A stretch of 64,000 bases of DNA, taken from an uncultured bacterium. GTDB taxonomy: Bacteria > Hydrothermota > Tepidihabitantia > SM23-42. The DNA is taken from positions 31,398 through 95,397 of the forward strand of contig CAYQPW010000007.1 of NCBI GenBank assembly GCA_964419565.1, given 5' to 3'. Shown in pieces: positions 8,645 through 33,460 of this stretch. Numbering within the stretch: the first letter of the stretch is position 1; the number at the start of each line of letters is the position of its first letter. Position numbers and translations under genes: made by a program. Under the pieces are notes generated by a model that saw nothing but the letters and a program-made list of their open reading frames with translations, made no database searches and was not told the DNA's origin.

Positions 8645-8753
8645 AAGATGGAAGAGGGGTTTGGGTTTGGATGCTGGAGTGAAGATAGAGGATAGATCAG
8701 TATATATAAACTGGTTATTTAGTATCCAAACCATAACCAAATAACCATTTTGT
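8645..8753. repeat. intercistronic imperfect hairpin element, family 1, copy A
   Basis: Starts right after the stop codon with AAGATGG..GGGGTTTGGGTTTGGATGCTGGA. 3' arm is TATCCAAACCATAACCAAATAACCATTTTG, just before the ribosome-binding site of the next gene. Confidence 0.7.
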
Positions 8754-8767
8754 TAGCAGGGGGTTTT

Positions 8768-11843: not shown

Positions 11844-11891
11844 CATTGAAGATTTAAGATTGAAGATTTGAGATTTTGGATAACTGATTAA

Positions 11892-13403: not shown

Positions 13404-13404
13404 C

Positions 13405-16819: not shown

Positions 16820-18111
16820 GTTGGTTCGACAGTTATAAAGAAAAAAAATGTTCTATTGAGGATGCTGTTTCGGTCGTTAAGGACAATGACCGGATCTATG
16901 TCAGCGGTAATGCGGCGACTCCTTTTGGGTTGATGGATGCGCTTGAGCAGCGAAAGGATGAACTGCATAATGTTGAACTTGCGCATGTGCTTTTATTTGG
17001 TGATGAACCTTTGTCAAAGCCCGGAATGGAAGGTCATTTTCGACACAACTCGCTTTTCGTGGGTCCAGCTGACCGTGCAGCCGTGAATGCGGGTAAAGCG
17101 GATTATATCCCGGTTTTTCTTTACGAGATACCGAGTCTTTTCTATACGGGTTTGTTACCAGTTGATGTAGCTTTTATGCATCTATCACCTCCTGATGAAC
17201 ATGGTTTCATGAGCTATGGGGTCGAATGTTTGGCTTCAAAAGCTGCTGCAGAGTCAGCCAAGATCGTAGTCGCCCAGGTAAATGAGAAGATGCCGCGCGC
17301 TCTTGGTGATTCGTTCATACATGCATCAAGAGTGTCCAAGATCGTTGAGATCTCAGAAGATTTACCTGAGTTACAGCCCATCCCGTTCACTGATGTTGAG
17401 AAGAAAATCGGCGCAAATGTTGCCAGTCTGGTCGAAGATGGTTCTACTGTTCAGTTGGGTATCGGCGGGATCCCTAACGCCGCGCTTAAAGCTATGTTCG
17501 ACAGGAGGGATCTCGGTGTTCATACAGAAATGGTTTCAGATAGCATAATTGAAGCTATTGAAGCAGGCGTTATTACCGGTTCGAAAAAAACGCTGCATAA
17601 CAGTAAGATCATCGCGACATTTTATTTGGGAACAAAAAAGATCTATGAATTTATCGATAATAATCCAGTATTTGAGACCCACCCATGCAACTATACAAAC
17701 CATCCTTATATTATAGGACAAAACGAAAAGATGGTTGCGATAAATTCCGCGATTGAAGTCGACCTTACCGGGCAGGTATGCTCAGATTCCATCGGTACGA
17801 GGATCTATTCGGGTTTTGGTGGCCAACTTGATTTTATAAGGGGTGCTGCTCAATCCAAAGGCGGTAAACCCATTATCGCTTTGTCATCGACTGCCAAAGG
17901 GGGTAAGCTAAGCAAGATCGTACCTACTATGCAGGTAGGCGCTGGTGTGGTAACAACACGCGCTGATGTCCATTATGTTGTTACTGAGCACGGTGTTGCA
18001 AATTTACACGGCAAGAATCTGCGCCAGCGTGCCGAAGCCCTTATCTCTATAGCTCATCCGGATTTTCATAATATCCTCGAAGAAGAAGCAAAGAAAAGGA
18101 AATTGCTCTAG
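16816..18111 (+). CDS. acetyl-CoA hydrolase/transferase family CoA-transferase (4-hydroxybutyrate/butyryl-CoA:acetate type)
   Basis: 431 aa, the size of Cat2/AbfT-type enzymes. VQLGIGGIPNA, HTEMVSD and GFGGQLDFIRGA segments. Confidence 0.75.
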   Translation: MSWFDSYKEKKCSIEDAVSVVKDNDRIYVSGNAATPFGLMDALEQRKDELHNVELAHVLLFGDEPLSKPGMEGHFRHNSLFVGPADRAAVNAGKADYIPVFLYEIPSLFYTGLLPVDVAFMHLSPPDEHGFMSYGVECLASKAAAESAKIVVAQVNEKMPRALGDSFIHASRVSKIVEISEDLPELQPIPFTDVEKKIGANVASLVEDGSTVQLGIGGIPNAALKAMFDRRDLGVHTEMVSDSIIEAIEAGVITGSKKTLHNSKIIATFYLGTKKIYEFIDNNPVFETHPCNYTNHPYIIGQNEKMVAINSAIEVDLTGQVCSDSIGTRIYSGFGGQLDFIRGAAQSKGGKPIIALSSTAKGGKLSKIVPTMQVGAGVVTTRADVHYVVTEHGVANLHGKNLRQRAEALISIAHPDFHNILEEEAKKRKLL

Positions 18112-18143
18112 GAGTGTAGTCTAACATTTAACAATTCTTTATC

Positions 18144-18542
18144 ATGACTTTGGATCATATAGGTATCGCCGTCAAATCAATAGAAAAGAGATTAGCTATC
18201 TGGAAAAATGCATTGGGTTTGACCTTTGTCAAAATAGAAGAGATCCAGGATCAGAAGGTCAAGGTGGCAAGGTTGGATGTCGGTGGTACAGAGATCGAAT
18301 TATTAGAACCGACAGATAATGACAGTCCTATTTCTAATTTCATAGAAAAAAGAGGGGAGGGTATTCATCATCTGTGTTTTCAGGTGGATGATATTGAAAG
18401 GGCCCTGACCGAGATAAAAGGTCAAGGCATAAAATTGATCGATGAGATCCCGAGAACTGGCGCAGGAGGGAACAAGATAGCTTTTATCCATCCAAAGGAT
18501 ATGGGTGGTGTATTGATCGAATTAACCCAAAAAAAGATTTAA
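18144..18542 (+). CDS. mce: methylmalonyl-CoA epimerase (VOC/glyoxalase fold)
   Basis: 132 aa. LDHIGIAV...EGIHHLCF...[14 protein letters not shown] is the typical epimerase pattern. Confidence 0.8.
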
Positions 18543-18570
18543 CGATTAATAATGATTTTTCTAAGGAGGA

Positions 18571-19740
18571 ATGATGCATATCGAGTCAAAAATAGTGCAT
18601 GGTGGTCAGCATCCTGATAAGGAGACTGGTGCCCTCGCACCACCGATCTATCAGACATCGACTTTTGCATTCCGTGATGCTGATCATGGCGCACGGCTTT
18701 TTAAGCAGGAAGAAACAGGTTATATCTATACAAGGCTTAGTAATCCGACCATCGATCTGCTTGCCAAAAAGGTCGCTTTACTGGAATCTACTGAGGCCGG
18801 GGTCGTATTTGCATCGGGCCTTGCGGCGATTTTCAATTTAGTAGTGACGCTCTCAAAAGCAGGTGAACATATCGTTTCTGACGATACTATCTATGGCGGA
18901 ACTTACGCACTGTGCAAGAATATTCTTCCCAACTTAGGTATTGAAGTAACGTTCTGCGATACTGCGGATGCTGATCAGCTGAGATCTGCGATACGCGATA
19001 ACACAAGATTAGTATTCACAGAAACACCAGCAAACCCGACACTGAAAATCATTGATATCGCCAAATGCGCAGAAGTGACACACGCTAAGAAAATTCCTCT
19101 GTGTGTTGACAATACTTTTGCAACACCCTATCTTCAGAGACCAGTAGAACTCGGCGCTGATATTGTTGTTCACTCAGCGACAAAGTACTTTGGTGGTCAT
19201 GGTGATATTATCGGCGGCATTGTCGTTGGAAAAAAGGATTTTATCCATGGACTCTGGGAGAATGCCAAAGAGATAGGAGCATGCAATTCGCCATTCAATG
19301 CGTGGCTCGTATTACGCGGTCTTAAAACTCTGGCAGTAAGGATGGACCGCCACTGCATGAATGCGATGAAAATCGCAGAATATCTTAATAAACATGACAG
19401 AGTTGAGAAAGTATATTATCCAGGGCTTTTATCGCACCCGGGGCATGAACTCGCCAAGAAACAGATGAGTGGCTTTGGCGGCATGGTCGGATTTGATGTG
19501 AAAGGTGGCAAAGAAGCAGGTAAGGTAATAATGAATTCTGTTAGATTATGTATCCTTGCGGTAAGTCTTGGTGATGCTGATACCCTCATCGAGCACCCTG
19601 CCTCAATGACGCATTCGACTTATTCTGACGGAGAATTACGTGATTGCGGGATCAATCCTGGCTATGTAAGATTATCAGTGGGTCTTGAACACGCTGATGA
19701 TATAATCGCTGATCTTGACCAGGCTCTTAGTAAGTTATAG
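18571..19740 (+). CDS. methionine gamma-lyase / Cys-Met-metabolism PLP enzyme
   Basis: HSATKYFGGHGD PLP-lysine motif; YTRLSNPT and DNTFATPYLQRP segments; 389 aa. Confidence 0.75.
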   Translation: MMHIESKIVHGGQHPDKETGALAPPIYQTSTFAFRDADHGARLFKQEETGYIYTRLSNPTIDLLAKKVALLESTEAGVVFASGLAAIFNLVVTLSKAGEHIVSDDTIYGGTYALCKNILPNLGIEVTFCDTADADQLRSAIRDNTRLVFTETPANPTLKIIDIAKCAEVTHAKKIPLCVDNTFATPYLQRPVELGADIVVHSATKYFGGHGDIIGGIVVGKKDFIHGLWENAKEIGACNSPFNAWLVLRGLKTLAVRMDRHCMNAMKIAEYLNKHDRVEKVYYPGLLSHPGHELAKKQMSGFGGMVGFDVKGGKEAGKVIMNSVRLCILAVSLGDADTLIEHPASMTHSTYSDGELRDCGINPGYVRLSVGLEHADDIIADLDQALSKL

Positions 19741-19804
19741 AAGATGGGTTGGGGTTTGGAAACTAGAAATCCCGCATCCTAACCCTGACCAAATAACGAT
19801 TTTG
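19741..19804. repeat. intercistronic imperfect hairpin element, family 1, copy B
   Basis: AAGATGGGTTGGGGTTTGGA ... TCCTAACCCTGACCAAATAACGATTTTG. Same position relative to the upstream stop and downstream AAGGAGG. Confidence 0.7.
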
Positions 19805-19817
19805 TCAAGGAGGTTTG

Positions 19818-20864
19818 ATGATTGGAATTGTTGGCTACGGTTCATATTTACCGAGATATAGGATCAAGGTAGAAGAGATCGCTCATCAATGGGGTCGAGA
19901 CCCTGAAACAGTGAAACGTGGTTTAATGCTTAAGGAAAAGACTGTACCTGGACTCGATGAAGATACAATCACGATTTCGGTCGAAGCTGCACGTAATGCA
20001 TTGAAAAGAGCTGGTATTGACCCGACTGATATTGGTGCTCTTTATATCGGTTCTGAGTCGCATCCATATGCTGTAAAACCATCTGGTACAGTCGTTGCTG
20101 AAGCTCTGGGTGCTGTACCGAATGTGCACATAGCAGATTATGAGTTTGCCTGTAAAGCGGGAACTGAGGCGATGTTCGTAGGTTACGGTCTAGTAAAAGC
20201 CGGTCTTGTAAAATATGCACTTGCTATTGGTGCTGATACATCACAGGGTGCACCTGGTGACGCATTGGAGTTCTCTGCATCGGCTGGCGGTTCGGCATTC
20301 ATATTTGGCAAAGAGCGGGTAGTCGCTGAGGTTTTGGACACATTTTCCTATACGACCGACACGCCTGACTTCTGGCGTCGAGAAGGTGCTTTTTATCCAT
20401 TGCATGGCGGTCGTTTTACAGGTGAACCCGCATATTTCAAACATGTTCTAGGTGCTGGACATGCGATCCTGGAAAAGAGCGGGTATAAACCTGAGGACTT
20501 CGCCTATGCGATATTTCACATGCCAAATGGGAAATTTCCTCTGACTGCAGGTAAAAAGTTGGGTTTTACAAAAGAGCAAATGGAGCCCGGTTGGATAGTG
20601 CCTTTGATGGGTAATACATATTCAGGTTCGTCACCCACGGGTTTTTCTGCGACCCTGGACATTGCTAAACCCGGTGATCTGATATTGCTCGTGTCATTCG
20701 GGTCTGGAGCTGGAAGTGATGCCTTCGTATTCAAAACCACTGACCTGATCGATGAGGTACGTGATAAGGCCGAGAAACTTAGAGAGATGCTTGATAATAA
20801 CCGTATTTACCTTGATTATGGTCAATATGCAAAATATCGGGGTAAGATCATAATGAACGAATAA
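19818..20864 (+). CDS. HMG-CoA synthase, short archaeal type
   Basis: About 348 aa. GSESHPY (Glu), [11 protein letters not shown] (Cys), FHMPNGKF (His) and GNTYSGSS motifs. ATG 19818 preferred over TTG 19815 on spacing from AGGAGG. Confidence 0.8.
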
Positions 20865-20874
20865 GGAGGCTGGT

Positions 20875-22020
20875 GTGAGAGAAGTAGTTGCTATTGGTTG
20901 TGGAATGACAAAATTCGGTGAACTCTGGACCATGTCATTGAGGGATATTTTTGTCGATGCGGCACTGAAGGCTATCAAGGATGCGGGTGTTGATCATATA
21001 GATTCAATGTATGTCGGTGCGATGACCCCAGGACTTTTTGTCGGCCAAGAACATATCGGTGCCTTAATGGCTGATTATCTCGGCGTCGCGCCGGTTCCCG
21101 CAGTGCGTGTCGAGTCAGCCTGTTGCTCAGGTGGTATGGCACTGAGACTTGGATTTTTTGAAATCTCTTCAGGATATAGTGATATTGTTTTGGTCGGCGG
21201 GGTTGAGAAAATGAACGATGGTGCTGACGCCACTTATGCACTTGCTACGGCAGCAGATCAGGAGTATGAGGTTTATCAGGGCGTAACCTTTCCCGGACTG
21301 TATGCACTGATCGCACGGGCTCATATGCATCGCTACGGGACAACACGAAAACAGCTGGCTGCGGTTTCAGTTAAGAATCATCGAAACGGTGCCATGAATC
21401 CTAATGCACAATTTCCACAGGAGGTGACCATTGAACAGGTGATCAATGCAACGCTCGTCGCTGATCCGCTTACTGTGCTTGATAGTTCACCAGTATCTGA
21501 TGGTGCAGCTTGTGTTATACTCGCATCGGCTGACCTTGCCAAGAAAATGGGAGTAAGACCGGTCAAGATAATCGGTTCAGGGGCAGCTACAGATACTTTC
21601 GCTCTGCACGACCGTGAAGATATCACGACCCTCAAAGCGGTTGAATTATCTGGTGAAGCAGCTTATAAAATGGCTGGCGTAAAACCATCAGATATTGATT
21701 TAGCCGAGGTTCATGATTGTTTTTCGATCGCAGAAATATGTATTATTGAAGAATTAGGATTCACGGAAAAAGGCAAAGGCGGACCATTTACTGAACAGGG
21801 AAATACAGCATTGAATGGAAAGATTCCGGTCAATACATCGGGTGGTCTGAAATCCAAAGGACATCCGGTTGGAGCAACGGGTATCGCGCAGGTCGTTGAA
21901 GTCGTTGAACAGCTGCAGGGAAAAGCTGGTAAACGTCAGGTGAAGAATCCTCAAATCGGCTTAACTCAGAATATGGGTGGTTCAGGTGCTTCATCAGTCG
22001 TTCATATTTTTAAAATATAA
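20875..22020 (+). CDS. acetyl-CoA acetyltransferase, archaeal/SCP-x-type thiolase
   Basis: [10 protein letters not shown] (active Cys), EVHDCFS and [17 protein letters not shown] motifs. GTG start after GGAGG. Confidence 0.8.
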
Positions 22021-22117
22021 AAGAAGGGTTTGATTTGGATGCTGGAAAAAGCAAAATCGAGGTTTTAATATAGATGTTTGAAGTCCAGCTTCCTAACCAT
22101 GACCCAATAACCATTTG
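22021..22117. repeat. intercistronic imperfect hairpin element, family 1, copy C
   Basis: AAGAAGGGTTTGATTTGGATGCTGGA ... TCCAGCTTCCTAACCATGACCCAATAACCATTTG. GCTGGA and TCCAGC are perfectly complementary. Confidence 0.7.
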
Positions 22118-22130
22118 ATAAGGAGGTCAC

Positions 22131-22520
22131 ATGCCATCACCAAGATATCGCCGTGAGATGCCGCAGCGCTACCGTCTTGAGGCAGCAAAATGCAGGAGCT
22201 GCGGTAAGCTGTCATTTCCTCCACGCTTGATCTGTTCAGGTTGCGGCGCTCGTGAATTCGACAGTTCAAAGATGTCAGATACCGGGACAATTCTTTCATA
22301 TACAACGATCCGAGTTGCGCCTGCAAATTTCTCTAGGCAGGTACCTTATTCGATTGCTATTGTGGAATCGGATAATGGTATTAGAGTGACGACTCAGGTC
22401 GTTGATTGCCGACCCGAGGATCTGAAAATCGGCAAGAAAGTAAAGTTTGTGTTCAGAAAAATGTACGAAGAAGGACATACCGGGATTATTTGCTACGGCT
22501 ATAAGACTGTGCTTGTTTGA
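22131..22520 (+). CDS. DUF35 OB-fold / zinc-ribbon protein (thiolase-HMGCS scaffold type)
   Basis: 129 aa. [20 protein letters not shown] rubredoxin-like zinc ribbon followed by an OB-fold-like half. Adjacent to the thiolase and HMGCS. Confidence 0.8.
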
Positions 22521-22524
22521 GGTA

Positions 22525-24135
22525 ATGATGTATAGAATTGAATCGAAAATAAGTGTAAACGATCCAGAGTATAAGGCTAATGAATTAGCTATGAAGAAGG
22601 CTGTTGGTGTCTTGAAGGAGCGTCTTGCCGAGGTCAAAAAAGGCGGTCCTGATTATATGCATAAAAAACATGTTGAGCGAGGTAAGCTCTTTGTTCGTGA
22701 TCGCCTTAAATTACTGCTCGATCCAGATACGCCGTTTCTCGAATTGAGTCCTCTTGCGGCCTGGGATATGTATGATAACGGCCACCCGTCGGCTGCGATC
22801 ATAACGGGTATCGGTTTAATACATGAACGAGAAGTTATGGTCATTGCCCATGATGCAACGGTAAAGGGTGGTACCTATGTCCCTGAAACGATAAAAAAAC
22901 ATATCCGTGCGCAAGAAATTGCGATGGAGAATCGATTACCTTGTATATATCTGGTTGATTCAGGTGGGATTTTTCTGCCTTTGCAGGTCGGGACATTCCC
23001 TGATCGATTCCATTTTGGTCGCATATTTTTCAACCAGGCAAGAATGTCTGCTGCGAACATCCCTCAGATATCCGTCGTCCTCGGATTCTGTACGGCAGGC
23101 GGCGCATATCAACCAGCGATGAGTGACGAGGTTGTTATTGTCAAAGGTGTGGGCACTATCTACATCGGGGGGCCTCCGTTAGTCAAAGCGGCGACTGGTG
23201 AAGTTGTCAGTGAAGAGGACTTAGGAGGTGCTGATGTCCATTGCCGGATTTCAGGTGTTGCTGATCATTATGCCAGCGATGATGAACACGCTCTTGAAAT
23301 TACCCGCAGTATCGTCGAAAATCTTGGTCAACAACCGGGATACCCGCTGTTGAGAAGTCAACCAGAAGAACCAGCATATGATCCAAAAGAACTTTACGGT
23401 ATCATCCCTGCCGATCCTAAGAAGACCTTTGATATGAGGGAGATAATTGCACGTATCGTGGACCGTAGTGATTTTCAAGAATTCAAAGAGCTTTATGGTC
23501 CTACTATTGTCTGCGGTTTTGCGCGCATTATGGGTTACCCGGTTGGTATTCTGGCAAATAACGGCGTCTTGTTTTCTGAATCTTCGCAAAAAGGTGCGCA
23601 TTTTGTCACGATGTGCTCGGTGAGGAAGATCCCTTTACTTTTTCTACAGAATATTACTGGTTTTATCGTTGGCAAAAGGTATGAACATCAGGGTATAGCC
23701 AAAGACGGTGCTAAATTGGTGCATGCTGTGGCTAATGCACAGGTTCCGAAATTTACGGTTATGATAGGTGGTTCGTACGGTGCAGGGAATTACGGCATGT
23801 GCGGACGAGCTTATGACCCACGACTACTCTGGATGTGGCCTACTGCCCGGATTTGTGTCATGGGTGGTGAACAGGCTGCTGGTGTTCTGACCGATATCAA
23901 GGTAAGAGCTTTAATAAAACAGGGGAAGAAACCGACCCAGCAGGAAATTGATGAGATAAAAAAGCCTATTTTAGCTAAATACGAACAAGAATCGAGTGCT
24001 TACTATTCGACCGGTCGGCTTTGGGATGACGGGATTATCGATCCTCTTGATACACGGCAGCTTCTCGGTTTAGGTATCGGTATGTCACTAAATGCACCGA
24101 TTCCTGATCACAGATTTGGTGTTTTTAGAATGTAA
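22525..24135 (+). CDS. methylcrotonyl-CoA carboxylase beta subunit (carboxyltransferase)
   Basis: N-terminal [35 protein letters not shown] is MCC-beta/GcdA-like. In-frame ATG at 22525 used because the track start at 22447 overlaps the DUF35 gene. Confidence 0.8.
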
Positions 24136-24149
24136 TTTACAGAGGGAAC

Positions 24150-24500
24150 ATGGGATTGAAAGGTGGTGCAATGAAAAAAATCAAGTTCAAGGATATCGTT
24201 GCTGGGGTTAAAAAACCATGGCAGCCCAAGGATGTTGCTTTTATTAATGATACAGCTTTACGCGTTGCCAAGATCGAAGGTGTATACAACTGGCACACAC
24301 ACCGTGATGAAGATGAGTTTTTTTTCGTTCTCAAAGGTAAAATTTCCATTGATACTGAAGAGGGCGAAGTAGAAATCAAGGAAAATCAGGGATTTTTGGT
24401 AAAACGCGGCAAGCGACATCGTTCGAGGGCAAAAAAAGCTGCCTGGATATTGCTTGTCGAACCGGTGAAAACAAAGACTCTTGGAGAAGATAATCAATGA
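24150..24500 (+). CDS. cupin-domain protein
   Basis: About 110 aa. NWHTHRDEDEFFFVLKG...G..V.RG..H is a cupin-2-like metal motif. An alternative start at 24171 is equally plausible. Confidence 0.6.
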   Translation: MGLKGGAMKKIKFKDIVAGVKKPWQPKDVAFINDTALRVAKIEGVYNWHTHRDEDEFFFVLKGKISIDTEEGEVEIKENQGFLVKRGKRHRSRAKKAAWILLVEPVKTKTLGEDNQ

Positions 24501-24628
24501 CAAATACCAAAAACCAAAGATCAAAGGAATGTAAAAATCTCAATAGGTATATTTGACATTGGAGATTTGGTTATCATTTGGCATTTCTGATTTGAAATTT
24601 GTAATTATGAATTAAAAGGATATATCGT

Positions 24629-25420
24629 ATGCAAAGAGAAAATCTGCAGACGCTTTTATATGATATTGAAAAAGGTGTGGCGAAGGTGACGTTCAACCGA
24701 CCGGATGTTCACAACGCGTTCAATGATAGCATGATACGCGAGCTCGGCGATGTTTTCGATGATATCGGGCAGCGGCAGGATGCCCGTGTTGTGGTTATGA
24801 CTGGTAAGGGTAAGTCCTTTTGTGCTGGTGCCGATCTGAACTGGATGCGTCGTGTTAAGGACTATGATTATGAAGACAATCTAAAAGAATCTTTGGAACT
24901 TGCGGACATGCTGTATAAGATATATTCATCACCTAAGCCAACAATCGCTCAGGTCAATGGAGCGGCAATAGGTGGTGGCACCGGTCTGGTTGCAGTTTGC
25001 GATATCGCAATTGCAGCAGACAGGGCAAAGTTCAGTTTCAGCGAAGTGAAGCTTGGTCTTATCCCTGCGTGTATTTCACCGTATGTGATAAAAAAATGCG
25101 GTGAAGGCAAATGCCGCGAGTTCTTTTTAACCGGTGAACGGTTGACTGCACAGAGAGCTTGTGCTGCGGGTTTGATCAACATAGTCACGTCACCTGATGA
25201 ACTTGGTAATACTGTCGGTGAATTGGTGCAGAAGTTGTTGTCGAGTGGTCCCGAGGCGATCGCAAAGTGCAAAGAATTATTGCGTAATGTTGCTGAAATG
25301 CCCTTTGAAAAGGGCAAGGCATATACAGCTGAGGTGATTGCACGATTGCGCATCTCTGATGAAGGACAGGAGGGGATGGCAGCGTTTTTTGATAAAAGAA
25401 AGCCGAAGTGGAACAAATAG
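24629..25420 (+). CDS. enoyl-CoA hydratase family, probably methylglutaconyl-CoA hydratase
   Basis: Crotonase fold (FNRPDVHNAF, GKSFCAGADL, VNGAAIGGG, EGMAAFFDKRKPKW). Position between MCC beta and alpha genes. Confidence 0.75.
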   Translation: MQRENLQTLLYDIEKGVAKVTFNRPDVHNAFNDSMIRELGDVFDDIGQRQDARVVVMTGKGKSFCAGADLNWMRRVKDYDYEDNLKESLELADMLYKIYSSPKPTIAQVNGAAIGGGTGLVAVCDIAIAADRAKFSFSEVKLGLIPACISPYVIKKCGEGKCREFFLTGERLTAQRACAAGLINIVTSPDELGNTVGELVQKLLSSGPEAIAKCKELLRNVAEMPFEKGKAYTAEVIARLRISDEGQEGMAAFFDKRKPKWNK

Positions 25421-25685
25421 TGAATTTCAAATTACAAATACCAAATGACAAACGAATTCTCCAACTATGCGGGAACCACGATTTACATGTACTATATAAT
25501 CAAAAATGATAAATCCCGCAATCCTATTTGTAGAATTATAATACGAAGCGGGATAAATCGGGACAAGATCCAGATATCAAACCGAAGTGGTTCAAGGATT
25601 CAGATAAATGATGGCAATACAGAGGGATATTTTATCTGTATAAATCTGCACCAGTCTGTTTGCATCGATTTGTGCGGAGCAAAAA

Positions 25686-27191
25686 ATGTTTAAAAAAATA
25701 TTGATTGCCAACCGCGGTGAGATTGCTATTCGCATCGCCCGAGCTTGTCACGAGCTGGGGATATCAACGGTCGGGGTTTATTCAAAAGCTGATGCTGCTT
25801 CACGCCATCTTTGGCATATGGATGACGCTGTTTTTATAGGTGATCCTGCGCCTCAGTCGAGTTATCTAAATATCCTCAAAATAATCGAAGTAGCTCAGCA
25901 GTATGGCGTCCAGGCAATACATCCAGGATATGGTTTTCTAGCCGAGAATGCCCGGTTTGTTAAAGCATGCGAAGAAGCAGGTATCGTATTTATTGGTCCG
26001 AATTCCAGAGCTATGGCTTTGGTTGGCGACAAGGTTGCATCGCGCAATACAGTTAAACATGCCGATGTACCTATTATCCCGGGTATGGAAGCAAGTAGCA
26101 CTGATCTGATCGCCTTCCGAAATATGGCCTCCCAGGTTGGCTATCCGGTGATCGTCAAAGCGTCTATGGGCGGGGGTGGCAAGGGGATGAGGATAGTGCG
26201 TAGCGACCGGGAACTTGAATCAAACATCGCTGCTGGACAAAGAGAAGCTCAAAGTGCATTTGGTGATGCTACAGTGTATCTTGAAAAGTATATTGAGAAA
26301 CCAAGGCATATTGAATTCCAGGTTATTCGTGACACGCATGGTAATGTCGTTCATTTGTACGAACGTGAGTGCTCTATCCAGCGACGGCACCAGAAGATCA
26401 TCGAAGAGACTCCCTCACCAGCTCTTGATAATTCTCTGCGAGAGGAAATGGGTGAAGCTGCAAAGAGGGTTATTGAAGCAGCAGATTACACAAACGCTGG
26501 GACAGTTGAATTCCTCGTTGATGAAAATGGGAAATTTTATTTTCTCGAAGTGAATGCACGTGTCCAGGTGGAACACCCGATTACGGAAATGGTTACCGGT
26601 GTTGACTTAGTACGTGAACAGATACTGGTTGCGACCGGTGAAAAACTTAACTTCACCCAGACAGATATATGCCAGCGCGGTCACGCAGTGGAATCCCGTA
26701 TTTATGCTGAAGATCCAGATAATAACTTTATGCCTTCACCCGGCAGAATACTCTATTTGCTTGAACCAAGTGGTCCAGGTGTCCGAGTCGATTCAGGTAT
26801 ATACCAGGGTTGGGATGTACCGCCCCATTATGACCCGATACTTTCAAAACTTATAACCTGGGCTGAGACAAGAGAAGCATCCCTGAGACGTATGTCCCGT
26901 GTTCTGGAGGAATATATTATTCTTGGGATAAAAACTAATATAAGATTTCTGAAGTGTATCATGGACTCCGAAAAATTCATAACCGGCAAGTATCATACAC
27001 ATTTTATTGATGATAATGAAAGAGACTTGATACCTGAATATGATAGAATAGACCAGGTCTTGATCGCCGCTTCGCTGATAAAAAAGACACGGCGGACAGG
27101 GGTCAGGGTCCCGGCTATTTCCAGCTCATCAGAACAGGCAAAAACAACGACTCCCTGGCAAGAATTAGGTCATTGGGAGATATGCAGATAG
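25686..27191 (+). CDS. biotin carboxylase subunit (MCC alpha, BC part), stand-alone
   Basis: ILIANRGEIAIRI, HPGYGFLAEN, GGGGKGMR and ECSIQRRHQKIIEE motifs. 501 aa, no biotinyl domain. Confidence 0.88.
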   Translation: MFKKILIANRGEIAIRIARACHELGISTVGVYSKADAASRHLWHMDDAVFIGDPAPQSSYLNILKIIEVAQQYGVQAIHPGYGFLAENARFVKACEEAGIVFIGPNSRAMALVGDKVASRNTVKHADVPIIPGMEASSTDLIAFRNMASQVGYPVIVKASMGGGGKGMRIVRSDRELESNIAAGQREAQSAFGDATVYLEKYIEKPRHIEFQVIRDTHGNVVHLYERECSIQRRHQKIIEETPSPALDNSLREEMGEAAKRVIEAADYTNAGTVEFLVDENGKFYFLEVNARVQVEHPITEMVTGVDLVREQILVATGEKLNFTQTDICQRGHAVESRIYAEDPDNNFMPSPGRILYLLEPSGPGVRVDSGIYQGWDVPPHYDPILSKLITWAETREASLRRMSRVLEEYIILGIKTNIRFLKCIMDSEKFITGKYHTHFIDDNERDLIPEYDRIDQVLIAASLIKKTRRTGVRVPAISSSSEQAKTTTPWQELGHWEICR

Positions 27192-27215
27192 TGAAGGGAT
27201 ATATGATTGATCGGG

Positions 27216-27283
27216 TTATCAGAGGATCACGATGGTCATATCCCCTGATATCCTGTCGGCCTGATACCCGTGTATTCTGATAA
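27216..27283. repeat. TATCAG-type intergenic repeat (copy 2, inverted orientation)
   Basis: TTATCAGA (27216-27223) and TCTGATAA (27276-27283) are a perfect inverted pair enclosing CCTGATATCCTG and CCTGATACCC. Confidence 0.6.
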
Positions 27284-27296
27284 TCTTACATAAGCC

Positions 27297-27785
27297 ATGG
27301 AATATAAATTCATACACCGAAACGAGATCCATACAGTGAAGATCAAGAAATCTGATAAGGGCTATCAGTTCACTGTTGATGGGAAGGACTATGACATCGT
27401 CAACTATTCGAAACATGAAAATATAATATCTTTTACATTTAACAAAGAGTCTTACAATATATACTATGCACAGGATAAGGATATGATATATCTGGCAACA
27501 GGCGGTGAGTACTACGCGTTTGTTTCTGACCGGGGTGGTTCAATGAAAGGCAGAAGAACACACGGTCAGATGGGTAATAGTGTAAGCTCACCTATGCCTG
27601 GTTTATTGGTAAAGATTATGGTCGCAGTCGGCGATAATGTTAAACAAGGGACGACTCTTGCCATAGTGGAAGCAATGAAGATGCAAAATGAATTGCGCGC
27701 GCCGCGTGACGGGATTATACGGCAGATAAATAACCGCGAAGGTGATCAGGTTGATGCTTTGAAACCGATCGTTGAGCTGACATAA
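27297..27785 (+). CDS. biotin carboxyl carrier protein (MCC alpha, BCCP part)
   Basis: EAMKMQNE biotinylation motif. 162 aa, paralogous to 13405-13896. Confidence 0.85.
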   Translation: MEYKFIHRNEIHTVKIKKSDKGYQFTVDGKDYDIVNYSKHENIISFTFNKESYNIYYAQDKDMIYLATGGEYYAFVSDRGGSMKGRRTHGQMGNSVSSPMPGLLVKIMVAVGDNVKQGTTLAIVEAMKMQNELRAPRDGIIRQINNREGDQVDALKPIVELT

Positions 27786-27934
27786 GGAGAAACTCGTCGT
27801 TAAGTTTGCACATCGACTTTTCGCATGAACCAAGGCCCCGGATAAATTCAAGAAAAAGAGGCGGAAGACAATTTCTGAGATCGACACGAGTGGCGATGCA
27901 GCATAACCTTTAACTATAACAGAAGGTGTGATAT

Positions 27935-28318
27935 ATGTATAGTAAGAAAGTGATGGACCATTTTATGAACCCGCGTAATGTAGGTGAAATCAAAGATGCC
28001 GATGGTGTCGGAGAAGTCGGTAACCCTGTATGTGGTGATGTTATGACCTTTTATATAAAAGTAAAGAATGGTATTATTAAGGATGTTAAATTCAAGACAT
28101 TTGGTTGTGGTGCGGCGATCGCTGTGTCGAGTATGGTCAGCGAAATGGCCAAGGGAAAAACGATTAAGGAAGCAATGGAGATCACGAACAGGTCGGTGGT
28201 TGATGAACTCGGCGGTTTACCCAATCAGAAACTGCATTGCTCTAACCTTGGTGCTGATGCTTTGCATAAGGCGATTGAAAATTATGTGAGAAAGACAAAG
28301 AAAGATATCGATGAATAG
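27935..28318 (+). CDS. iscU: Fe-S cluster assembly scaffold IscU/NifU N-terminal type
   Basis: GNPVCGDVM, FKTFGCGAAIA and LHCSNLGADAL carry the three conserved Cys. Confidence 0.9.
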   Translation: MYSKKVMDHFMNPRNVGEIKDADGVGEVGNPVCGDVMTFYIKVKNGIIKDVKFKTFGCGAAIAVSSMVSEMAKGKTIKEAMEITNRSVVDELGGLPNQKLHCSNLGADALHKAIENYVRKTKKDIDE

Positions 28319-28354
28319 GCTGCAGAACATTGAACTGCAGAGAAGGGGTGTGTA

Positions 28355-28822
28355 ATGCTGAGTGATAGAGACGAAATAATACAAATAGTAAATGAGGTTA
28401 AGAAAATTATCGATAGTAAATATGACCGGGACGAAAAACTTGCCGCGGTGTCCCATCTTTTAAAAGACAAGATCCCATATTATGACTGGGTGGGATTTTA
28501 TATTGCTGACCAGGCAAAGAAGGAACTTATTCTTGGACCTTTTGTCGGAGAACCGACTGAACATACCCGCATCGCCTTTGGTGAAGGGATTTGTGGACAA
28601 GCCGCGGCAATAAAAAAGCCATTTGTAGTTCAGGACATAAGGAAAGAAACGAATTATCTCTCCTGTAGTGTTAAGGTGATGTCCGAAATAGTATATCCCA
28701 TAATGAAGCAAGGTGAGGTTGTTGGAGAACTCGATATTGATTCGCATACCCTCTCTCCTTTCACTGACAAGGATAATGCCCTGCTGGGTAAGATCTGTAC
28801 ATTGATCGCTGTTTTATTATAA
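28355..28822 (+). CDS. GAF-domain protein (free methionine-R-sulfoxide reductase-like)
   Basis: 155 aa. YDWVGFY...GPFVGEP...GEGICGQAA...SEIVYPI...GELDIDS is the pattern of single-domain GAF/fRMsr proteins. Confidence 0.7.
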   Translation: MLSDRDEIIQIVNEVKKIIDSKYDRDEKLAAVSHLLKDKIPYYDWVGFYIADQAKKELILGPFVGEPTEHTRIAFGEGICGQAAAIKKPFVVQDIRKETNYLSCSVKVMSEIVYPIMKQGEVVGELDIDSHTLSPFTDKDNALLGKICTLIAVLL

Positions 28823-29000
28823 GTCCGTGGATTTGGCGGCCGATATCATAATGATGCGCCGGTAGAGGAGGGTTTGTTCGTGGAGAAAAATACTGCTATA
28901 TATTATGTTCGCACTTGCGATGAAGCCTGTATCGAGGTGGTTCAGAGAGACCAGCATTTGGTGCAGTGATTTTTTAGTTATGGTCTGCAAAGGAGGTAAA

Positions 29001-29777
29001 ATGGCGTTTAAAAATATTATTGTCGAGACTGATGGTAATTTAGGGATTTTAAAAATCAATCGACCTGACGTTTTAAATGCGGTGAACCTTGAGACGATAG
29101 TCGAAATTGAACGAGCGATGGTTGAATTCCAGGAAGATGATACTGTCGCTGTCGTGATAATAACGGGTCAAGGCAAGTCTTTTGTTTCCGGTTCAGATAT
29201 CGCTCGTTTGGCTGAAATGGATTCCTTGGAGGCTAGAGAATACAGCAGGATCGGCCAGCGCGTGCTGTCATACATCGAAAATATGGAAAAACCAGTGATC
29301 GCTGCAGTAAATGGATATGCCCTAGGTTCAGGGTGTGAGCTTGCTATGGCTTGTGATATGAGGATTGCATCGGATAAGGCAAAGTTTGGTCAACCCGAGG
29401 TAAAACTTGGTCTGATCCCTGGTCATGCTGGGACGCAGCGTCTTGCCAGATTGGTCGGGGTCGGTAAAGCAAAAGAACTAATCTATACGGGCGACATTAT
29501 TGACGGACAGGAAGCGCTGAGAATTGGTTTAGTTAATCAGGTTGTTGCCTCTGATGCTCTTTTGGAAGTGGTGAAAAACATCGCTAATAAAATAGCCAGC
29601 GCGGGTAAAATTGCAGTTCACATTGCCAAAACAGTCATCAACCGCGGTATTAATACGAATCTCGAAACAGCAAATTCATATGAAATGGAAGCCTTCAGCA
29701 TATTATTTTCGACTGATGAGGCCAAAGAAGGCATGAAGGCTTTTTTGGAGAAAAGAAAACCTAAATGGAACAAATAG
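29001..29777 (+). CDS. crt: enoyl-CoA hydratase (crotonase)
   Basis: INRPDVLNA, GKSFVSGSDI, VNGYALGSGCELAMACD and EGMKAFLEKRKPKW motifs. ATG 29001 follows AGGAGG (28991-28996); the track start at 28905 is an unsupported extension. Confidence 0.85.
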   Translation: MAFKNIIVETDGNLGILKINRPDVLNAVNLETIVEIERAMVEFQEDDTVAVVIITGQGKSFVSGSDIARLAEMDSLEAREYSRIGQRVLSYIENMEKPVIAAVNGYALGSGCELAMACDMRIASDKAKFGQPEVKLGLIPGHAGTQRLARLVGVGKAKELIYTGDIIDGQEALRIGLVNQVVASDALLEVVKNIANKIASAGKIAVHIAKTVINRGINTNLETANSYEMEAFSILFSTDEAKEGMKAFLEKRKPKWNK

Positions 29778-29952
29778 ACAAAATACTAAGTACTAAATGC
29801 GAAACTCTGGACAATAATGAGGGACCAAAATTCAAATTCTCTAAACTCAGTCTTGAATTTCGTATTTGTTCAGGTATGAATTTTCCGCCCGAGGCGGGTC
29901 AGCCTTAGGCTGTAGATATTGTAATTTAGAGTTTTCTGCGATAGGAGGATAG

Positions 29953-31290
29953 ATGATTTTGGATGATAGACTTCAAAATGTCGCGATTATCGGCGCTGCA
30001 GGGAAGATGGGGAGTGGTATCGGTGTCATGGTCGCTCAGGAAATAGCAAAATTAAAGTTAAAGCCAGAAAATAATGATAAGGTGTTCAGTGTTAATCTTA
30101 TCGACATAAGTGAACGAGCGCTCGATGGACTACGTGGATACATGAAAACTCAACTGACCAAGGTCGCTGAAAAATCGACAGTACATTTAAGAAAATTATA
30201 CGAGGGGCGTAAGGATCTTGTTGAGAACGCTGATATCATCAGGGCCTTCGTAGATAACGCGTCAGCTGTATTGAACTATACGACAGATCTCAATACGGCG
30301 AAGGATGCATATCTGGTCTTCGAGGCGATCGTTGAAAATGAAAGGGTCAAGACGAAGATCTATAAGAAATTGAAAAGAATATGTTCCCCGGATACGATGT
30401 TCTTGACGAATACTTCGAGTATTCCTATATCCTACCTTGATAGACAGGCGGGTCTGGGTGGTCGTTTGATCGGCTACCACTTTTATAACCCGCCTGTTGT
30501 GCAACGTCTCGTTGAAGTCATCTCGGCCGAAACCACGATCGATGAACTCAAGAAAATCGCCGATGAACTGGGCAAGAGGCTGCGCAAAAAATTAGTACCA
30601 GCATTTGATATATCCGGATTTATTGGAAATGGTCATTTCATACGTGATGGTTTATTTGCGCTCAATGAAGTGGACCAGTTGAAAGGTACTCTTCGCTATC
30701 CGGGAGCGATCTATGTTGTCAATAAAGTGACTCAGGATTTTCTTTTAAGACCGATGGGTATTTTCCAACTTATCGATTATGTCGGGATCGATGTTTTTCA
30801 ATGTATATTAAAGGTCATGCGGACACATCTCGGGGATAAGACCCTCAAAAACAAACTGATTGATAAAATGGTCAAACAAGGTGTTCTGGGTGGACAGTAT
30901 GCAGATGGTTCGCAAAAAGATGGTTTTCTGAAGTACGACAAAAATCGACCGGTCGGTGTCTATAATTTCAGTAAAAAAGACTATTTTGTGTTCAGTGATA
31001 ATTGGAAAAAGAAAACAGATGCGCGGATCGGCTCATTGCCTGATGGTTTCGTGCCCTGGAAAGCGCTTCTTATGAACCCTAAAAAGGAAGGTGTTTTAAA
31101 AAATCATTTCGATGCGCTGAAAAAAATGGACACGTTAGGAGCCAGACTTGCATTGGCTTTCCTCAAGGAAACTAAATCGATTGGTGAACAGCTGATTAGC
31201 AGCGGAGTTGCAGCCTCAGCTGAAAATGTAAACGCGGTTTTAACTAATGGATTTTATTGGCTTTACGGTCCGATAAATAATTATGTATAG
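29953..31290 (+). CDS. 3-hydroxyacyl-CoA dehydrogenase, long form (445 aa)
   Basis: N-terminal Rossmann IIGAAGKMGSGI, LTNTSSIPIS and GYHFYNPP motifs. Has a C-terminal extension relative to my recollection of about 280-aa Hbd enzymes. Confidence 0.75.
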   Translation: MILDDRLQNVAIIGAAGKMGSGIGVMVAQEIAKLKLKPENNDKVFSVNLIDISERALDGLRGYMKTQLTKVAEKSTVHLRKLYEGRKDLVENADIIRAFVDNASAVLNYTTDLNTAKDAYLVFEAIVENERVKTKIYKKLKRICSPDTMFLTNTSSIPISYLDRQAGLGGRLIGYHFYNPPVVQRLVEVISAETTIDELKKIADELGKRLRKKLVPAFDISGFIGNGHFIRDGLFALNEVDQLKGTLRYPGAIYVVNKVTQDFLLRPMGIFQLIDYVGIDVFQCILKVMRTHLGDKTLKNKLIDKMVKQGVLGGQYADGSQKDGFLKYDKNRPVGVYNFSKKDYFVFSDNWKKKTDARIGSLPDGFVPWKALLMNPKKEGVLKNHFDALKKMDTLGARLALAFLKETKSIGEQLISSGVAASAENVNAVLTNGFYWLYGPINNYV

Positions 31291-31316
31291 GAAAAGATAA
31301 TAAGGATATGGATGAT

Positions 31317-31378
31317 AGGATTGGGTTTGGACGTTGGATTTTTTCCCGTTTCTTTACTAAAACCCAATAATAATCTTG
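31317..31378. repeat. intercistronic hairpin element, family 1, divergent copy D
   Basis: GGATTGGGTTTGGACGTTGGA ... CTAAAACCCAATAATAATCTTG, ending just before AAAGGAG and the ATG at 31392. Confidence 0.5.
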
Positions 31379-31391
31379 CAAAGGAGTTTTT

Positions 31392-32639: not shown

Positions 32640-32649
32640 AATATAAAAT

Positions 32650-33357: not shown

Positions 33358-33460
33358 TGATTGCATGGAGCAAAGAGCATAGGGTAAAGCGGATGGAAAC
33401 GATGATAAAGCCAGTAATTCTCCGCACCGTGCACTTAGCACTTTGCGCTTGGCATTTTTC

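Follow-up and report, generated by a model that had tools for sequence, protein, structure and literature searches.

An archaeal-type HMG-CoA synthase/thiolase/DUF35 gene trio joined to methylcrotonyl-CoA carboxylase genes, and its possible part in a lyase-free leucine catabolism

The canonical liu cluster, represented here by that of an Azospirillum plasmid, consists of genes for an isovaleryl-CoA dehydrogenase (IVD), a thiolase, an ACAD, the beta subunit of methylcrotonyl-CoA carboxylase (MCC-beta), a hydratase and MCC-alpha, and is closed by HMG-CoA lyase. In Streptomyces and Melissococcus, the HMGS gene adjoins that of HMG-CoA reductase (HMGR). The clusters described below, which contain an archaeal-type trio of HMG-CoA synthase (HMGCS), thiolase and DUF35 protein, differ from both, as those joined to MCC genes are without the lyase and the trio loci have no HMGR nearby. 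The cultured Desulfurella acetivorans A63 has its trio inside a single 12-gene operon whose genes abut or overlap behind a PAS/sigma-54 activator, in the order ACAD, HMGCS, thiolase, DUF35, ECH, EtfB, EtfA, MCC-beta, biotin carboxylase (BC), biotin carboxyl carrier protein (BCCP), glyoxalase-fold protein and CoA-transferase. The top PDB matches of its ACAD are isovaleryl-CoA dehydrogenases, leuA adjoins the operon, and the gene content has the look of a catabolic unit. Zixibacteria-type clusters have thiolase II, HCDH and ACAD added after BCCP, and a Calditrichaeota contig carries MCC by itself, without trio, hydratase or lyase.

The window analyzed here is a stretch of 64,000 nucleotides from an uncultured bacterium of the Hydrothermota. 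ORF, domain and profile checks place eight genes between positions 19818 and 27785, every one on the + strand. These genes and the features around them are:

16816–18111, + strand: butyryl-CoA:acetate-type CoA-transferase (PF02550, PF13336)
19737–19812, + strand: one copy of an intergenic repeat particular to the species, just 5' of the HMGCS ribosome-binding site and outside the pathway
19818–20864, + strand: archaeal-type (short, 348 aa) HMG-CoA synthase (TIGR00748, PDB 6ESQ match)
20875–22020, + strand: archaeal/SCP-x-type acetoacetyl-CoA thiolase (PRK06064, 6ESQ thiolase match)
22131–22520, + strand: DUF35 scaffold protein, zinc ribbon plus OB fold (PF12172, PF01796)
22525–24135, + strand: MCC beta subunit, the carboxyltransferase (MCC-beta matches)
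24150–24500, + strand: small cupin (PF07883)
24629–25420, + strand: LiuC-like 3-methylglutaconyl-CoA hydratase (ECH_1, 211 bits)
25686–27191, + strand: biotin carboxylase, N-terminal portion of the MCC alpha subunit, which is split here (Biotin_carb_N, CPSase_L_D2, Biotin_carb_C)
27297–27785, + strand: BT-like domain and biotin carboxyl carrier (BT-BCCP), the C-terminal part of the split MCC alpha (Biotin_lipoyl)
28905–32639, + strand: crotonase, 3-hydroxyacyl-CoA dehydrogenase and second SCP-x-type thiolase (Pfam)

The HMGCS matches the TIGR00748 archaeal HMGCS equivalog with 551.6 bits (cut-off 353) and the Methanothermococcus HMGCS of PDB 6ESQ with 468 bits. It resembles the methanogen enzyme roughly as closely as it does some bacterial ones, with no evident adaptation to a new reaction direction. 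The catalytic Glu (in GSESHPY), Cys (in FACKAGT) and His (in FHMPNG) are intact, and the gene is preceded by the ribosome-binding site AAGGAGG. The thiolase scores 546 bits with PRK06064 and 390 bits with the 6ESQ thiolase, and retains the Cys, HDCF and GH motifs. The DUF35 protein consists of zf-ChsH2 and OB_ChsH2_C domains, with a CxxC...CxxC pattern that reads CRSCG...CSGCG. Further copies of the intergenic repeat occur at 8648–8760, 22026–22126 and 31308–31338; it was not found in the trio loci of other species.

The carboxyltransferase aligns with P. aeruginosa MCC-beta (3U9R_B) at 719 bits and with human MCC-beta at 706 bits, against 474 bits for geranyl-CoA carboxylase beta, at most 276 bits for ordinary PCC-beta-type entries and a distant 153 bits for the glutaconyl-CoA decarboxylase GcdA. 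The highest score overall, 735 bits, goes to 9tps, an entry with the title PCC beta; close homologues of the carboxyltransferase are named methylcrotonoyl-CoA carboxylase by NCBI, and the beta gene of the canonical liu cluster is 63% identical. The alpha subunit is split, the biotin carboxylase being 48% identical to residues 1–497 of Azospirillum MCC alpha, and the BT-BCCP, which carries the AMKM motif (as EAMKMQ), aligning with residues 504–653 of the fused protein; one BT-BCCP homologue gives a weak ACCA_BT match. Pfam and profile scans detected no membrane decarboxylase subunit in the gene string. The hydratase has PRK07468 and PRK05674 as its top NCBIfam models, both under their cut-offs, and shares 49% identity over its full length with the Azospirillum liu-cluster hydratase, compared with 31% for the second crotonase of the window. 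The cupin, whose closest PDB match is the uncharacterized cupin 3d82, is present in nine loci, all of them WOR-3/Cloacimonadota-type clusters, and is missing from those of Zixibacteria and Desulfurella.

The DUF35 stop codon occupies 22518–22520 and the first in-frame carboxyltransferase ATG is at 22525, so that the two modules, which have HMG-CoA as their sole common metabolite, are separated by a spacer of 4 nt. Spacers of 105–150 nt occur elsewhere in the string. The sequence-only reading had named the same eight genes, in the same places and on the same strand, and had given the 4-nt spacer between the trio and MCC-beta; all of this is confirmed.

The junction is conserved. DUF35 is followed by MCC-beta in 30 of the 53 informative loci (related trio loci with sufficient downstream sequence). 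The record labels of these 30, about nine at phylum level, are WOR-3, Stahlbacteria, TA06, Cloacimonadota, Zixibacteria, Aminicenantes, Acidobacteriota, Ignavibacteria and Desulfurella, a recurrence that places the adjacency beyond chance. The gap between the two genes is ≤40 nt in 10 loci and <400 nt in 26 of 35, and shrinks to 2–5 nt in five. The remaining 23 informative loci carry the trio without MCC, with beta-oxidation genes or AtuA/DUF4387 as neighbours instead, implying that the trio has other contexts too. We found no publications on the linkage between the trio and MCC.

Neither HMG-CoA lyase nor the mevalonate pathway is represented near the trio. No HMGL-like or HMG-CoA-reductase domain was detected by Pfam among the ~58 ORFs of the window, and six-frame phmmer searches of the window with real probe proteins for HMG-CoA lyase, class I and class II HMGR, MVK, PMK and MDD gave no match. 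In 88 related loci, the same probes revealed no lyase, HMGR of either class, MVK, PMK or MDD at a distance of up to 10 kb from the trio. As a control of sensitivity, the lyase probe still picks up the distant LeuA of Desulfurella (E = 4e-9). The earlier observation that lyase and reductase are missing from the window is thus borne out, and the proposed link of the trio to leucine or isovalerate metabolism gains support from a conserved, often translationally tight linkage and from the lack of nearby mevalonate genes.

The string is part of an amino-acid/acyl-CoA catabolic gene island of ~45 kb, counting the 9.3 kb directly 5' of the window, in which the genes share one direction. Upstream of the string are three ACADs, EtfBA, an HdrD-like protein, a mutase, PCC, MCM, a CoA-transferase, an epimerase and methionine gamma-lyase; downstream are crotonase, HCDH, thiolase, BirA, CobO and CoaBC. 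A clear isovaleryl-CoA dehydrogenase was not found in the window and its upstream extension, where the ACADs are all Bcd-like short-chain types. The three genes at 28905–32639 make up a downstream acetoacetyl-CoA/crotonyl-CoA module; in one related locus (L016), their counterparts stand immediately 5' of the trio. The CoA-transferase scores 341 bits with TIGR03948, under the cut-off, and is a possible activator of isovalerate; its homologue is the last gene of the Desulfurella operon.

We tentatively favour, at somewhat short of an even chance, a lyase-free catabolism of leucine or isovalerate in which the HMGCS/thiolase/DUF35 complex would operate in reverse and replace HMG-CoA lyase. An archaeal complex that makes HMG-CoA stands directly before leucine-breakdown enzymes that end at HMG-CoA, in the usual place of the lyase, and the trio is therefore probably reversed. 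In the proposed route, 3-methylcrotonyl-CoA would be carboxylated by MCC (beta subunit, BC and BT-BCCP) at the expense of ATP, and the LiuC-like hydratase would yield HMG-CoA. The enzyme thioester would be re-formed on the HMGCS subunit, and a retro-Claisen cleavage would release acetyl-CoA and acetoacetyl-CoA, the latter passing via the shared CoA site and swinging to the thiolase, where exergonic thiolysis would pull the reaction. The net conversion would be HMG-CoA + 2 CoA → 3 acetyl-CoA + H2O. The three proteins would form a complex, MCC and hydratase would have the substrate specificities assigned above, and the rest of the genome would likewise lack a lyase.

The final step of HMGCS is an on-enzyme thioester hydrolysis, and the route needs this step reversed; we know of no demonstration that HMGCS acts in reverse physiologically. 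Citrate synthase, which is chemically analogous, reportedly runs reversed in D. acetivorans. Estimates from textbook values are ~+25 kJ/mol for the thiolase condensation and ~−30 kJ/mol for HMGCS, and the overall trio reaction would therefore lie close to equilibrium and be open to reversal when the acetyl-CoA/CoA ratio is low. An ATP-grasp biotin carboxylase without a membrane decarboxylase subunit points to carboxylation and to flux towards HMG-CoA. The sequence-only reading had offered either a lyase-independent catabolic link or a biosynthetic route; the former is favoured by this carboxylase, the Desulfurella operon and the catabolic island, and the latter is disfavoured. The trio may also, as that reading supposed, serve a purpose other than isoprenoid synthesis.

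It is unlikely that the trio instead runs forward from 3 acetyl-CoA, with MCC and hydratase adding leucine or isovalerate carbon to an HMG-CoA pool drained by an HMGR/mevalonate pathway elsewhere. The textbook direction of each enzyme of the string leads to HMG-CoA, leucine has been proposed to feed mevalonate in the archaeon Calditenuis (PMC12979851) and demonstrated to do so for the sterols of Trypanosoma brucei (PMC5993337), and a mevalonate pathway is known in some FCB bacteria (Hayakawa 2017, as cited in PMC6107057). However, the searches up to 10 kb from the trio, which found none of these genes in the window or the 88 loci, argue against such a supply, as does the contrast with the HMGS–HMGR pairs of Streptomyces and Melissococcus. 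The Desulfurella operon, with its IVD, EtfBA, CoA-transferase and sigma-54/PAS activator, resembles an inducible high-flux catabolic unit and not a housekeeping source of isoprenoids. Campylobacterota are generally users of the MEP pathway, which also counts against this explanation.

It is quite unlikely that leucine is broken down in the ordinary way, with an HMG-CoA lyase elsewhere in the genome. The trio would then run forward to some other end, for example to form acetoacetyl-CoA/HMG-CoA or as part of a ketogenic HMG-CoA cycle or PHA-type metabolism, and be co-located through shared acyl-CoA metabolites or regulation. The MCC-less trio loci and their different neighbours fit this arrangement, and the isolated Calditrichaeota MCC indicates that such genes can be scattered. 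By contrast, the linkage across phyla and the 2–5 nt spacers suggest a single pathway, the Desulfurella trio is placed between IVD and hydratase within the operon, and a forward trio beside a lyase would form a futile loop with net acetoacetyl-CoA hydrolysis.

Synthesis of branched C5 units by a route like the alternative isovaleryl-CoA pathway of myxobacteria is improbable. Acetyl-CoA would be converted by the trio to HMG-CoA, by the hydratase acting as a dehydratase to 3-methylglutaconyl-CoA, by MCC as a possibly ATP-yielding decarboxylase to 3-methylcrotonyl-CoA, and then to isovaleryl-CoA for iso-fatty acids or leucine. Myxococcus MvaS and LiuC reportedly run in this direction, biotin carboxylase reactions are close to equilibrium, the ACADs by etfBA, just 5' of the window, are of the often reductive Bcd type, and FCB bacteria are abundant in iso-branched lipids. 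Nevertheless, neither an AibA/AibB-type decarboxylase nor an AibC-type reductase was found in the window, whose sole CoA-transferase belongs to the acetyl-CoA hydrolase/transferase family. A complete ATP-grasp BC with BCCP is a hallmark of carboxylation, and the known decarboxylating relatives, such as the distantly matching GcdA, are without BC. In Desulfurella, the ACAD is closest to isovaleryl-CoA dehydrogenases, the sigma-54 activator is of a substrate type, and the adjoining leuA makes an alternative leucine route unneeded.

That two unrelated gene sets adjoin merely by chance in a long co-directional array is extremely improbable: ~44 kb of window genes lie in one orientation and the 105–150 nt spacers could contain promoters, but the synteny, with the junction recurring in 30–35 loci of about nine phylum-level labels, brings this explanation close to refutation. 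The 'MCC-linked' label is also clustered on the HMGCS tree, where just 4 of 500 shuffles gave equally few changes.

If the trio does end leucine catabolism in reverse, one thioester more would be retained than with the lyase and CoA-transfer to acetoacetate, a gain of about one ATP per leucine for an energy-limited anaerobe.

The archaeal-type HMG-CoA synthase (HMGCS), thiolase and DUF35 protein (the trio) are followed on the same strand by a methylcrotonyl-CoA carboxylase (MCC) module. The sequence-only reading had described these genes as one string, and the ORF listing together with Pfam and NCBIfam scans recovered every one of them where it had been placed, all on the + strand.

Genes of the trio and of the MCC module
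19818–20864, + strand, HMG-CoA synthase of 348 aa; TIGR00748 archaeal equivalog, 551.6 bits against a cut-off of 353
20875–22020, + strand, thiolase of the SCP-x/archaeal type; 390 bits to the 6ESQ thiolase
22131–22520, + strand, DUF35 protein; zinc ribbon (CxxC...CxxC) and OB fold
ATG 4 nt after the DUF35 stop codon, + strand, carboxyltransferase
After the cupin gene and before BC, + strand, hydratase; 49% identical to the Azospirillum liu hydratase
25686–27191, + strand, BC; 48% identical to Azospirillum MCC-alpha residues 1–497
Ending at 27785, + strand, BT-BCCP; aligns to MCC-alpha residues 504–653 and carries the biotinyl-lysine motif EAMKM (AMKM)

According to the ORF listing and the Pfam/NCBIfam assignments, HMGCS comes first among the trio genes, followed after 10 nt by the thiolase and after another 110 nt by DUF35. 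Alignment to 6ESQ shows that the catalytic Glu, Cys and His of HMGCS are kept (GSESHPY, FACKAGT and FHMPNG), as are, in the thiolase, the nucleophilic Cys and the HDCF and GH motifs (6ESQ_A). The thiolase scores 556.7 against the acetyl-CoA acetyltransferase equivalog NF053570, just under the cut-off of 600. A thiolase/HMG-CoA synthase/DUF35 complex has reportedly been described from Methanothermococcus thermolithotrophicus, and complexes of this archaeal type are physical 380-kDa assemblies with a fused CoA-binding site. The window trio resembles the M. thermolithotrophicus complex (PDB 6ESQ/6ET9) in being encoded by three adjacent genes for the same three proteins and in having the DUF35 zinc ribbon as well as every catalytic residue in common with it, and is predicted from its genes to form a complex of the archaeal type. 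By contrast, its host is a bacterium, it is strung with MCC and a methylglutaconyl-CoA hydratase without mevalonate genes, and we propose that it may run opposite to the archaeal direction. Tripartite architecture and a bacterial host are also common to PhlABC and MucABC, repurposed HMGS/ACAT/DUF35 acyltransferases that are used outside the mevalonate pathway (PMC12960953; PDB 5M3K, 9SKH). In those enzymes the HMGCS and thiolase catalytic residues are lost and Friedel-Crafts acetylation is carried out instead (PMC12960953), whereas the window proteins keep every catalytic residue. The window HMGCS scores 468 bits against the crystallised Methanothermococcus enzyme (6ESQ), a true HMGCS, and about 200 bits against the PhlABC/MucABC type.

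The carboxyltransferase scores 719 bits against Pseudomonas MCC-beta (3U9R_B) and 706 against human MCCB, compared with 474 for geranyl-CoA carboxylase beta and at most 276 for ordinary PCC-beta entries; its top match is 9tps (735 bits), although that entry is titled PCC beta. By these scores the protein is a member of the MCC-beta lineage. The second crotonase of the window is only 31% identical to the Azospirillum liu hydratase. With both PRK07468 and PRK05674 (NCBIfam) the hydratase of the module scores below the cut-off, and in Desulfurella it is matched by a crotonase of more generic type. The window thus probably has genes for a genuine MCC, its alpha subunit split, and for a LiuC-like methylglutaconyl-CoA hydratase; homology and this adjoining hydratase point to 3-methylcrotonyl-CoA as the likely MCC substrate.

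For a canonical liu cluster, and as the source of real reference proteins, we used the Azospirillum ramasamyi plasmid NZ_CP029830.1, in which the order is IVD, thiolase, ACAD (acyl-CoA dehydrogenase), MCC-beta, hydratase, fused MCC-alpha and HMG-CoA lyase. The window shares the beta, hydratase, alpha order, with an MCC-beta that is 63% identical. It differs in that HMG-CoA lyase is missing and the trio lies in the cluster instead, in the splitting of the alpha subunit into BC and BT-BCCP genes, in an extra cupin, and in the lack of an IVD inside the string. The split alpha subunit is found in both acyl-CoA carboxylases of the window (10296–13896 and 25686–27785), and the two BCCPs have a common N-terminal domain of ~90 aa. 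The cupin (116 aa, 24150–24500), between MCC-beta and the hydratase, is conserved only in clusters of the WOR-3/TA06/Cloacimonadota type; its nearest solved relatives, 3d82 and 2i45, are both uncharacterised. An ORF at 25445–25693 (82 aa) was taken as spurious: it matches no family, is of low complexity, is uncalled in public annotations and sits in a spacer with inverted repeats on either side.

Conservation of the arrangement was scanned with one genome per species in 80 loci around HMGCS homologues (62–96% identical), 53 of which were informative in that at least 2.5 kb of sequence lay beyond DUF35. MCC-beta is the next gene after DUF35 in 30 of the 53, in most cases with the hydratase, BC and BCCP after it, and the MCC-linked loci are labelled WOR-3, Stahlbacteria, TA06, Cloacimonadota, Zixibacteria, Aminicenantes, Acidobacteriota, Ignavibacteria and Desulfurella. 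The gap from DUF35 to MCC-beta measures 2–5 nt in five loci, at most 40 nt in ten and less than 400 nt in 26 of 35. A phylogeny of the trio had been proposed as a check by the sequence-only reading; a tree of HMGCS shows that the MCC-linked rows cluster, with as few changes in only 4 of 500 label shuffles, and that they form three groups (WOR-3-type, Zixibacteria-type and Desulfurella). In clusters of the Zixibacteria type, further genes follow for a classical thiolase, for 3-hydroxyacyl-CoA dehydrogenase and for acyl-CoA dehydrogenase.

At seven of the related loci (L017–L019, L022 (Ignavibacteriaceae), L025, L029 and L071) the trio adjoins an AtuA-like DUF1446 protein (~455 aa) and/or a DUF4387 protein (~118 aa), with no MCC, and at L025, L031 and L055 an upstream carboxyltransferase is just 44–45% identical to MCC-beta. 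These neighbours and upstream carboxyltransferases suggest that the trio has a second, uncharacterised partner module.

The most informative arrangement for comparison is that of Desulfurella acetivorans A63 (CP007051.1, locus L085), a cultured and fully sequenced organism in which 12 abutting or overlapping genes lie behind a PAS/sigma-54 activator.

Gene order of the Desulfurella operon
ACAD
HMGCS, thiolase, DUF35
Crotonase, EtfB, EtfA
MCC-beta, BC, BCCP
Glyoxalase-fold protein
CoA-transferase

The best solved relatives of the ACAD are isovaleryl-CoA dehydrogenases, and no lyase is found among the genes of the operon. Its gene content would read as a pathway of activating, oxidising, carboxylating and hydrating steps that starts from isovalerate and leads to the trio, and the operon is substrate-inducible in appearance. 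Genes for 2-isopropylmalate synthase and citrate synthase lie directly upstream of the sigma-54 activator (L085, 4193–7076), the citrate synthase gene being 1.7 kb upstream of the operon.

The window itself derives from an uncultured WOR-3/Stahlbacteria-type bacterium of salt-marsh sediment, and the sequencing runs in which the locus was detected are 18 DNA runs, most of them sampled from salt marsh; a search of RNA runs gave no match to the window trio or to the Desulfurella operon. The trio and the MCC module lie within ~45 kb of co-directional genes, including 9.3 kb just upstream of the window.

Genes around the trio and the MCC module
Upstream of the trio: three Bcd-like ACADs (beyond the left end of the window), EtfBA, HdrD-like iron-sulfur protein, beta-eliminating lyase
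Upstream of the trio: MeaB, mutase with B12 subunit, propionyl-CoA-carboxylase set, methylmalonyl-CoA mutase
Upstream of the trio: alanine dehydrogenase, CoA-transferase, epimerase-like protein, methionine gamma-lyase
Downstream of the MCC module: crotonase, 3-hydroxyacyl-CoA dehydrogenase, second SCP-x thiolase, biotin ligase, corrinoid adenosyltransferase, CoaBC

The island is one of amino-acid and acyl-CoA catabolism, with its own cofactor genes included. No ACAD is found inside the window; the three tandem ACADs precede etfB, etfA and the HdrD-like gene in the 9.3 kb left of position 1 (L092, 5661–9104). Among solved structures they come closest to butyryl-CoA dehydrogenases of the Bcd-Etf type, two of them matching 5OL2_C (bifurcating Bcd-EtfAB) best, and none of the three looks clearly like an isovaleryl-CoA dehydrogenase. 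Next after the BCCP (27935–28822) come genes for an IscU/NifU-like scaffold and for a stand-alone GAF-domain protein, a position kept in close relatives (L001, L007 and L008). Genes for 23S rRNA intervening-sequence proteins (PF05635) occur between unrelated genes at 46287–46697 (−), within a NuoEF/GltB-like operon, and at L095 10009–10362, just past the right end of the window.

A promoter and terminator scan of 18000–33500 returned sites no commoner than in shuffled sequence. The sequence TCCTAACCNTGACCNAATAAC, upstream of HMGCS and DUF35, was suspected to be a regulatory site and was dropped as a pathway regulator because it is part of an intergenic repeat confined to same-species contigs. 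The repeat (~100 nt, GGTTTGG.TTTGGATGCTGGA ... TCCTAACC.TGACC.AATAAC) has copies at 8648–8760, 19737–19812, 22026–22126 and 31308–31338, directly upstream of the RBSs of several genes of the acyl-CoA island, and inverted copies at 24560–24599 and 25423–25457 bracket the hydratase gene. The repeat is limited to same-species contigs (L081–L084) and is absent from L001, whose HMGCS is 96% identical.

Genes that could consume HMG-CoA by other routes were sought around the trio. The Pfam scan of about 58 window ORFs revealed neither HMGL-like nor HMG-CoA-reductase domains. A search of the six-frame translations of the window and 88 related loci (1.19 million residues) with the Azospirillum lyase as a probe found no HMG-CoA lyase; the only match was the Desulfurella 2-isopropylmalate synthase (E = 4e-9), and the detection of so distant a family member indicates that the probe was sensitive. 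The sequence-only reading, which had recognised no HMG-CoA lyase or reductase in the window, is borne out by the Pfam scan and the probe searches. For HMG-CoA reductase of class I or class II, neither the window nor the 10 kb around the trio at the 88 loci gave a match, using probes from a Streptomyces plasmid mevalonate cluster (class I) and Melissococcus MvaE (class II), which miss each other by phmmer, so that a very divergent reductase could escape. Probes for mevalonate kinase, phosphomevalonate kinase and diphosphomevalonate decarboxylase likewise gave no match in the window or within 10 kb at the 88 loci. On both control plasmids, Streptomyces and Melissococcus, the reductase directly adjoins the synthase.

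With no mevalonate gene near any of the 88 loci, and with a Desulfurella operon that is catabolic in make-up, we consider it unlikely that both modules supply HMG-CoA to a mevalonate pathway encoded elsewhere. Routing of leucine to mevalonate does have parallels, having been proposed for Calditenuis (PMC12979851) and being known in trypanosomes (PMC5993337). Were this the role of the locus, it would represent a dual-entry HMG-CoA supply for isoprenoids, likewise undescribed in bacteria.

Alternatively, an HMG-CoA lyase might be encoded elsewhere in the genome, with the trio serving another forward role. This is less likely, as it fits poorly with the spacers of 2–5 nt and with the position of the trio inside the Desulfurella operon. 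MCC-beta homologues sampled outside the trio context consisted of one stand-alone MCC and one trio-linked cluster, a sample too small for a test of mutual exclusion.

The sequence-only reading had also entertained a biosynthetic route to branched C5 units. In Myxococcus xanthus, the Aib pathway runs in the biosynthetic direction through MvaS, LiuC, AibA/AibB and AibC. It joins HMG-CoA synthase and methylglutaconyl-CoA hydratase outside isoprenoid synthesis, as the window would; unlike the window, it uses a biotin-free AibAB decarboxylase, an AibC reductase and a bacterial-type MvaS rather than an archaeal trio. Among the Pfam-scanned window ORFs, no AibA/AibB decarboxylase (of the glutaconate-CoA-transferase-like kind) or AibC reductase was found, the sole CoA-transferase being of the PF02550/PF13336 type, and the carboxylase has its full ATP-dependent set. 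In Desulfurella, leuA lies just upstream, which makes a second route to leucine superfluous in that organism. Isovaleryl-CoA synthesis in the myxobacterial style has accordingly lost ground and retains little probability. Chance adjacency, which synteny excludes, is scarcely credible.

The tie between the trio and leucine or isovalerate metabolism that the sequence-only reading had drawn is real, and the catabolic, lyase-independent of its two options is favoured by the conserved linkage and the Desulfurella operon. A role of the trio outside isoprenoid synthesis, which that reading had expected for both options, is a possibility. Because its BC is of the ATP-grasp type, the MCC module would be carboxylating, with flux towards HMG-CoA. 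HMG-CoA is the only metabolite that the module and the trio share, and it needs a consumer. Reversal of the trio is favoured since the synthase is the only enzyme of the operon that touches HMG-CoA, a step for which canonical clusters use the lyase. The net reaction would be HMG-CoA + 2 CoA -> 3 acetyl-CoA + H2O, in which exergonic thiolysis would pull the unfavourable retro-reaction of HMG-CoA synthase through the shared or fused CoA site. A low acetyl-CoA/CoA ratio would drive the cleavage, with neither free acetoacetate nor HMG-CoA lyase. In comparison with the lyase and CoA-transfer to acetoacetate, one thioester would be saved, or roughly one ATP per leucine. With textbook values of about +25 kJ/mol for the thiolase condensation and about −30 kJ/mol for the synthase, the sum is estimated to be near equilibrium; no concentration-scale term enters, because three CoA species stand on each side. 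We know of no experiment in which the covalent hydrolysis step of HMGCS has been made to run backwards. Direction of flux, complex formation and substrate specificities are what we infer from the sequences.

A precedent of another kind is citrate synthase, which reportedly runs in reverse in the roTCA cycle of Desulfurella acetivorans and of Thermosulfidibacter: a Claisen-condensing, thioester-hydrolysing enzyme driven backwards by mass action. HMGCS belongs to another family and has another mechanism. Citrate synthase works without a covalent enzyme thioester, and the likeness is one of analogy only, not of homology.

We tentatively propose, as a possibility somewhat short of even, a widespread and so far undescribed ending of leucine and isovalerate catabolism by a mirror-image archaeal metabolon in WOR-3, Zixibacteria, Aminicenantes, Acidobacteriota, Ignavibacteria, Cloacimonadota and Desulfurella. 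Full-text literature searches found no paper on the linkage of the trio to MCC or on a reversed HMG-CoA synthase. The present analysis adds the probe searches that exclude lyase and mevalonate genes in the surroundings of 88 loci, a direct comparison with a canonical liu cluster, the layout of the Desulfurella operon and the upstream extension with three ACADs before etfBA. As D. acetivorans A63 is in culture and has the complete operon, the idea can be put to a direct test. If it is true, this would be the second natural 'irreversible' synthase found to be driven backwards, after the reversed citrate synthase, and HMG-CoA synthase would be physiologically reversible, in parallel to the reversal of citrate synthase, which changed how the TCA cycle is understood. 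If the trio replaces the lyase, many abundant sediment phyla would possess a thioester-conserving variant of the final leucine step, and estimates of ATP yield would change for amino-acid fermenters and isovalerate oxidisers. The annotation 'HMG-CoA synthase' in these bacteria would then no longer imply a mevalonate pathway.
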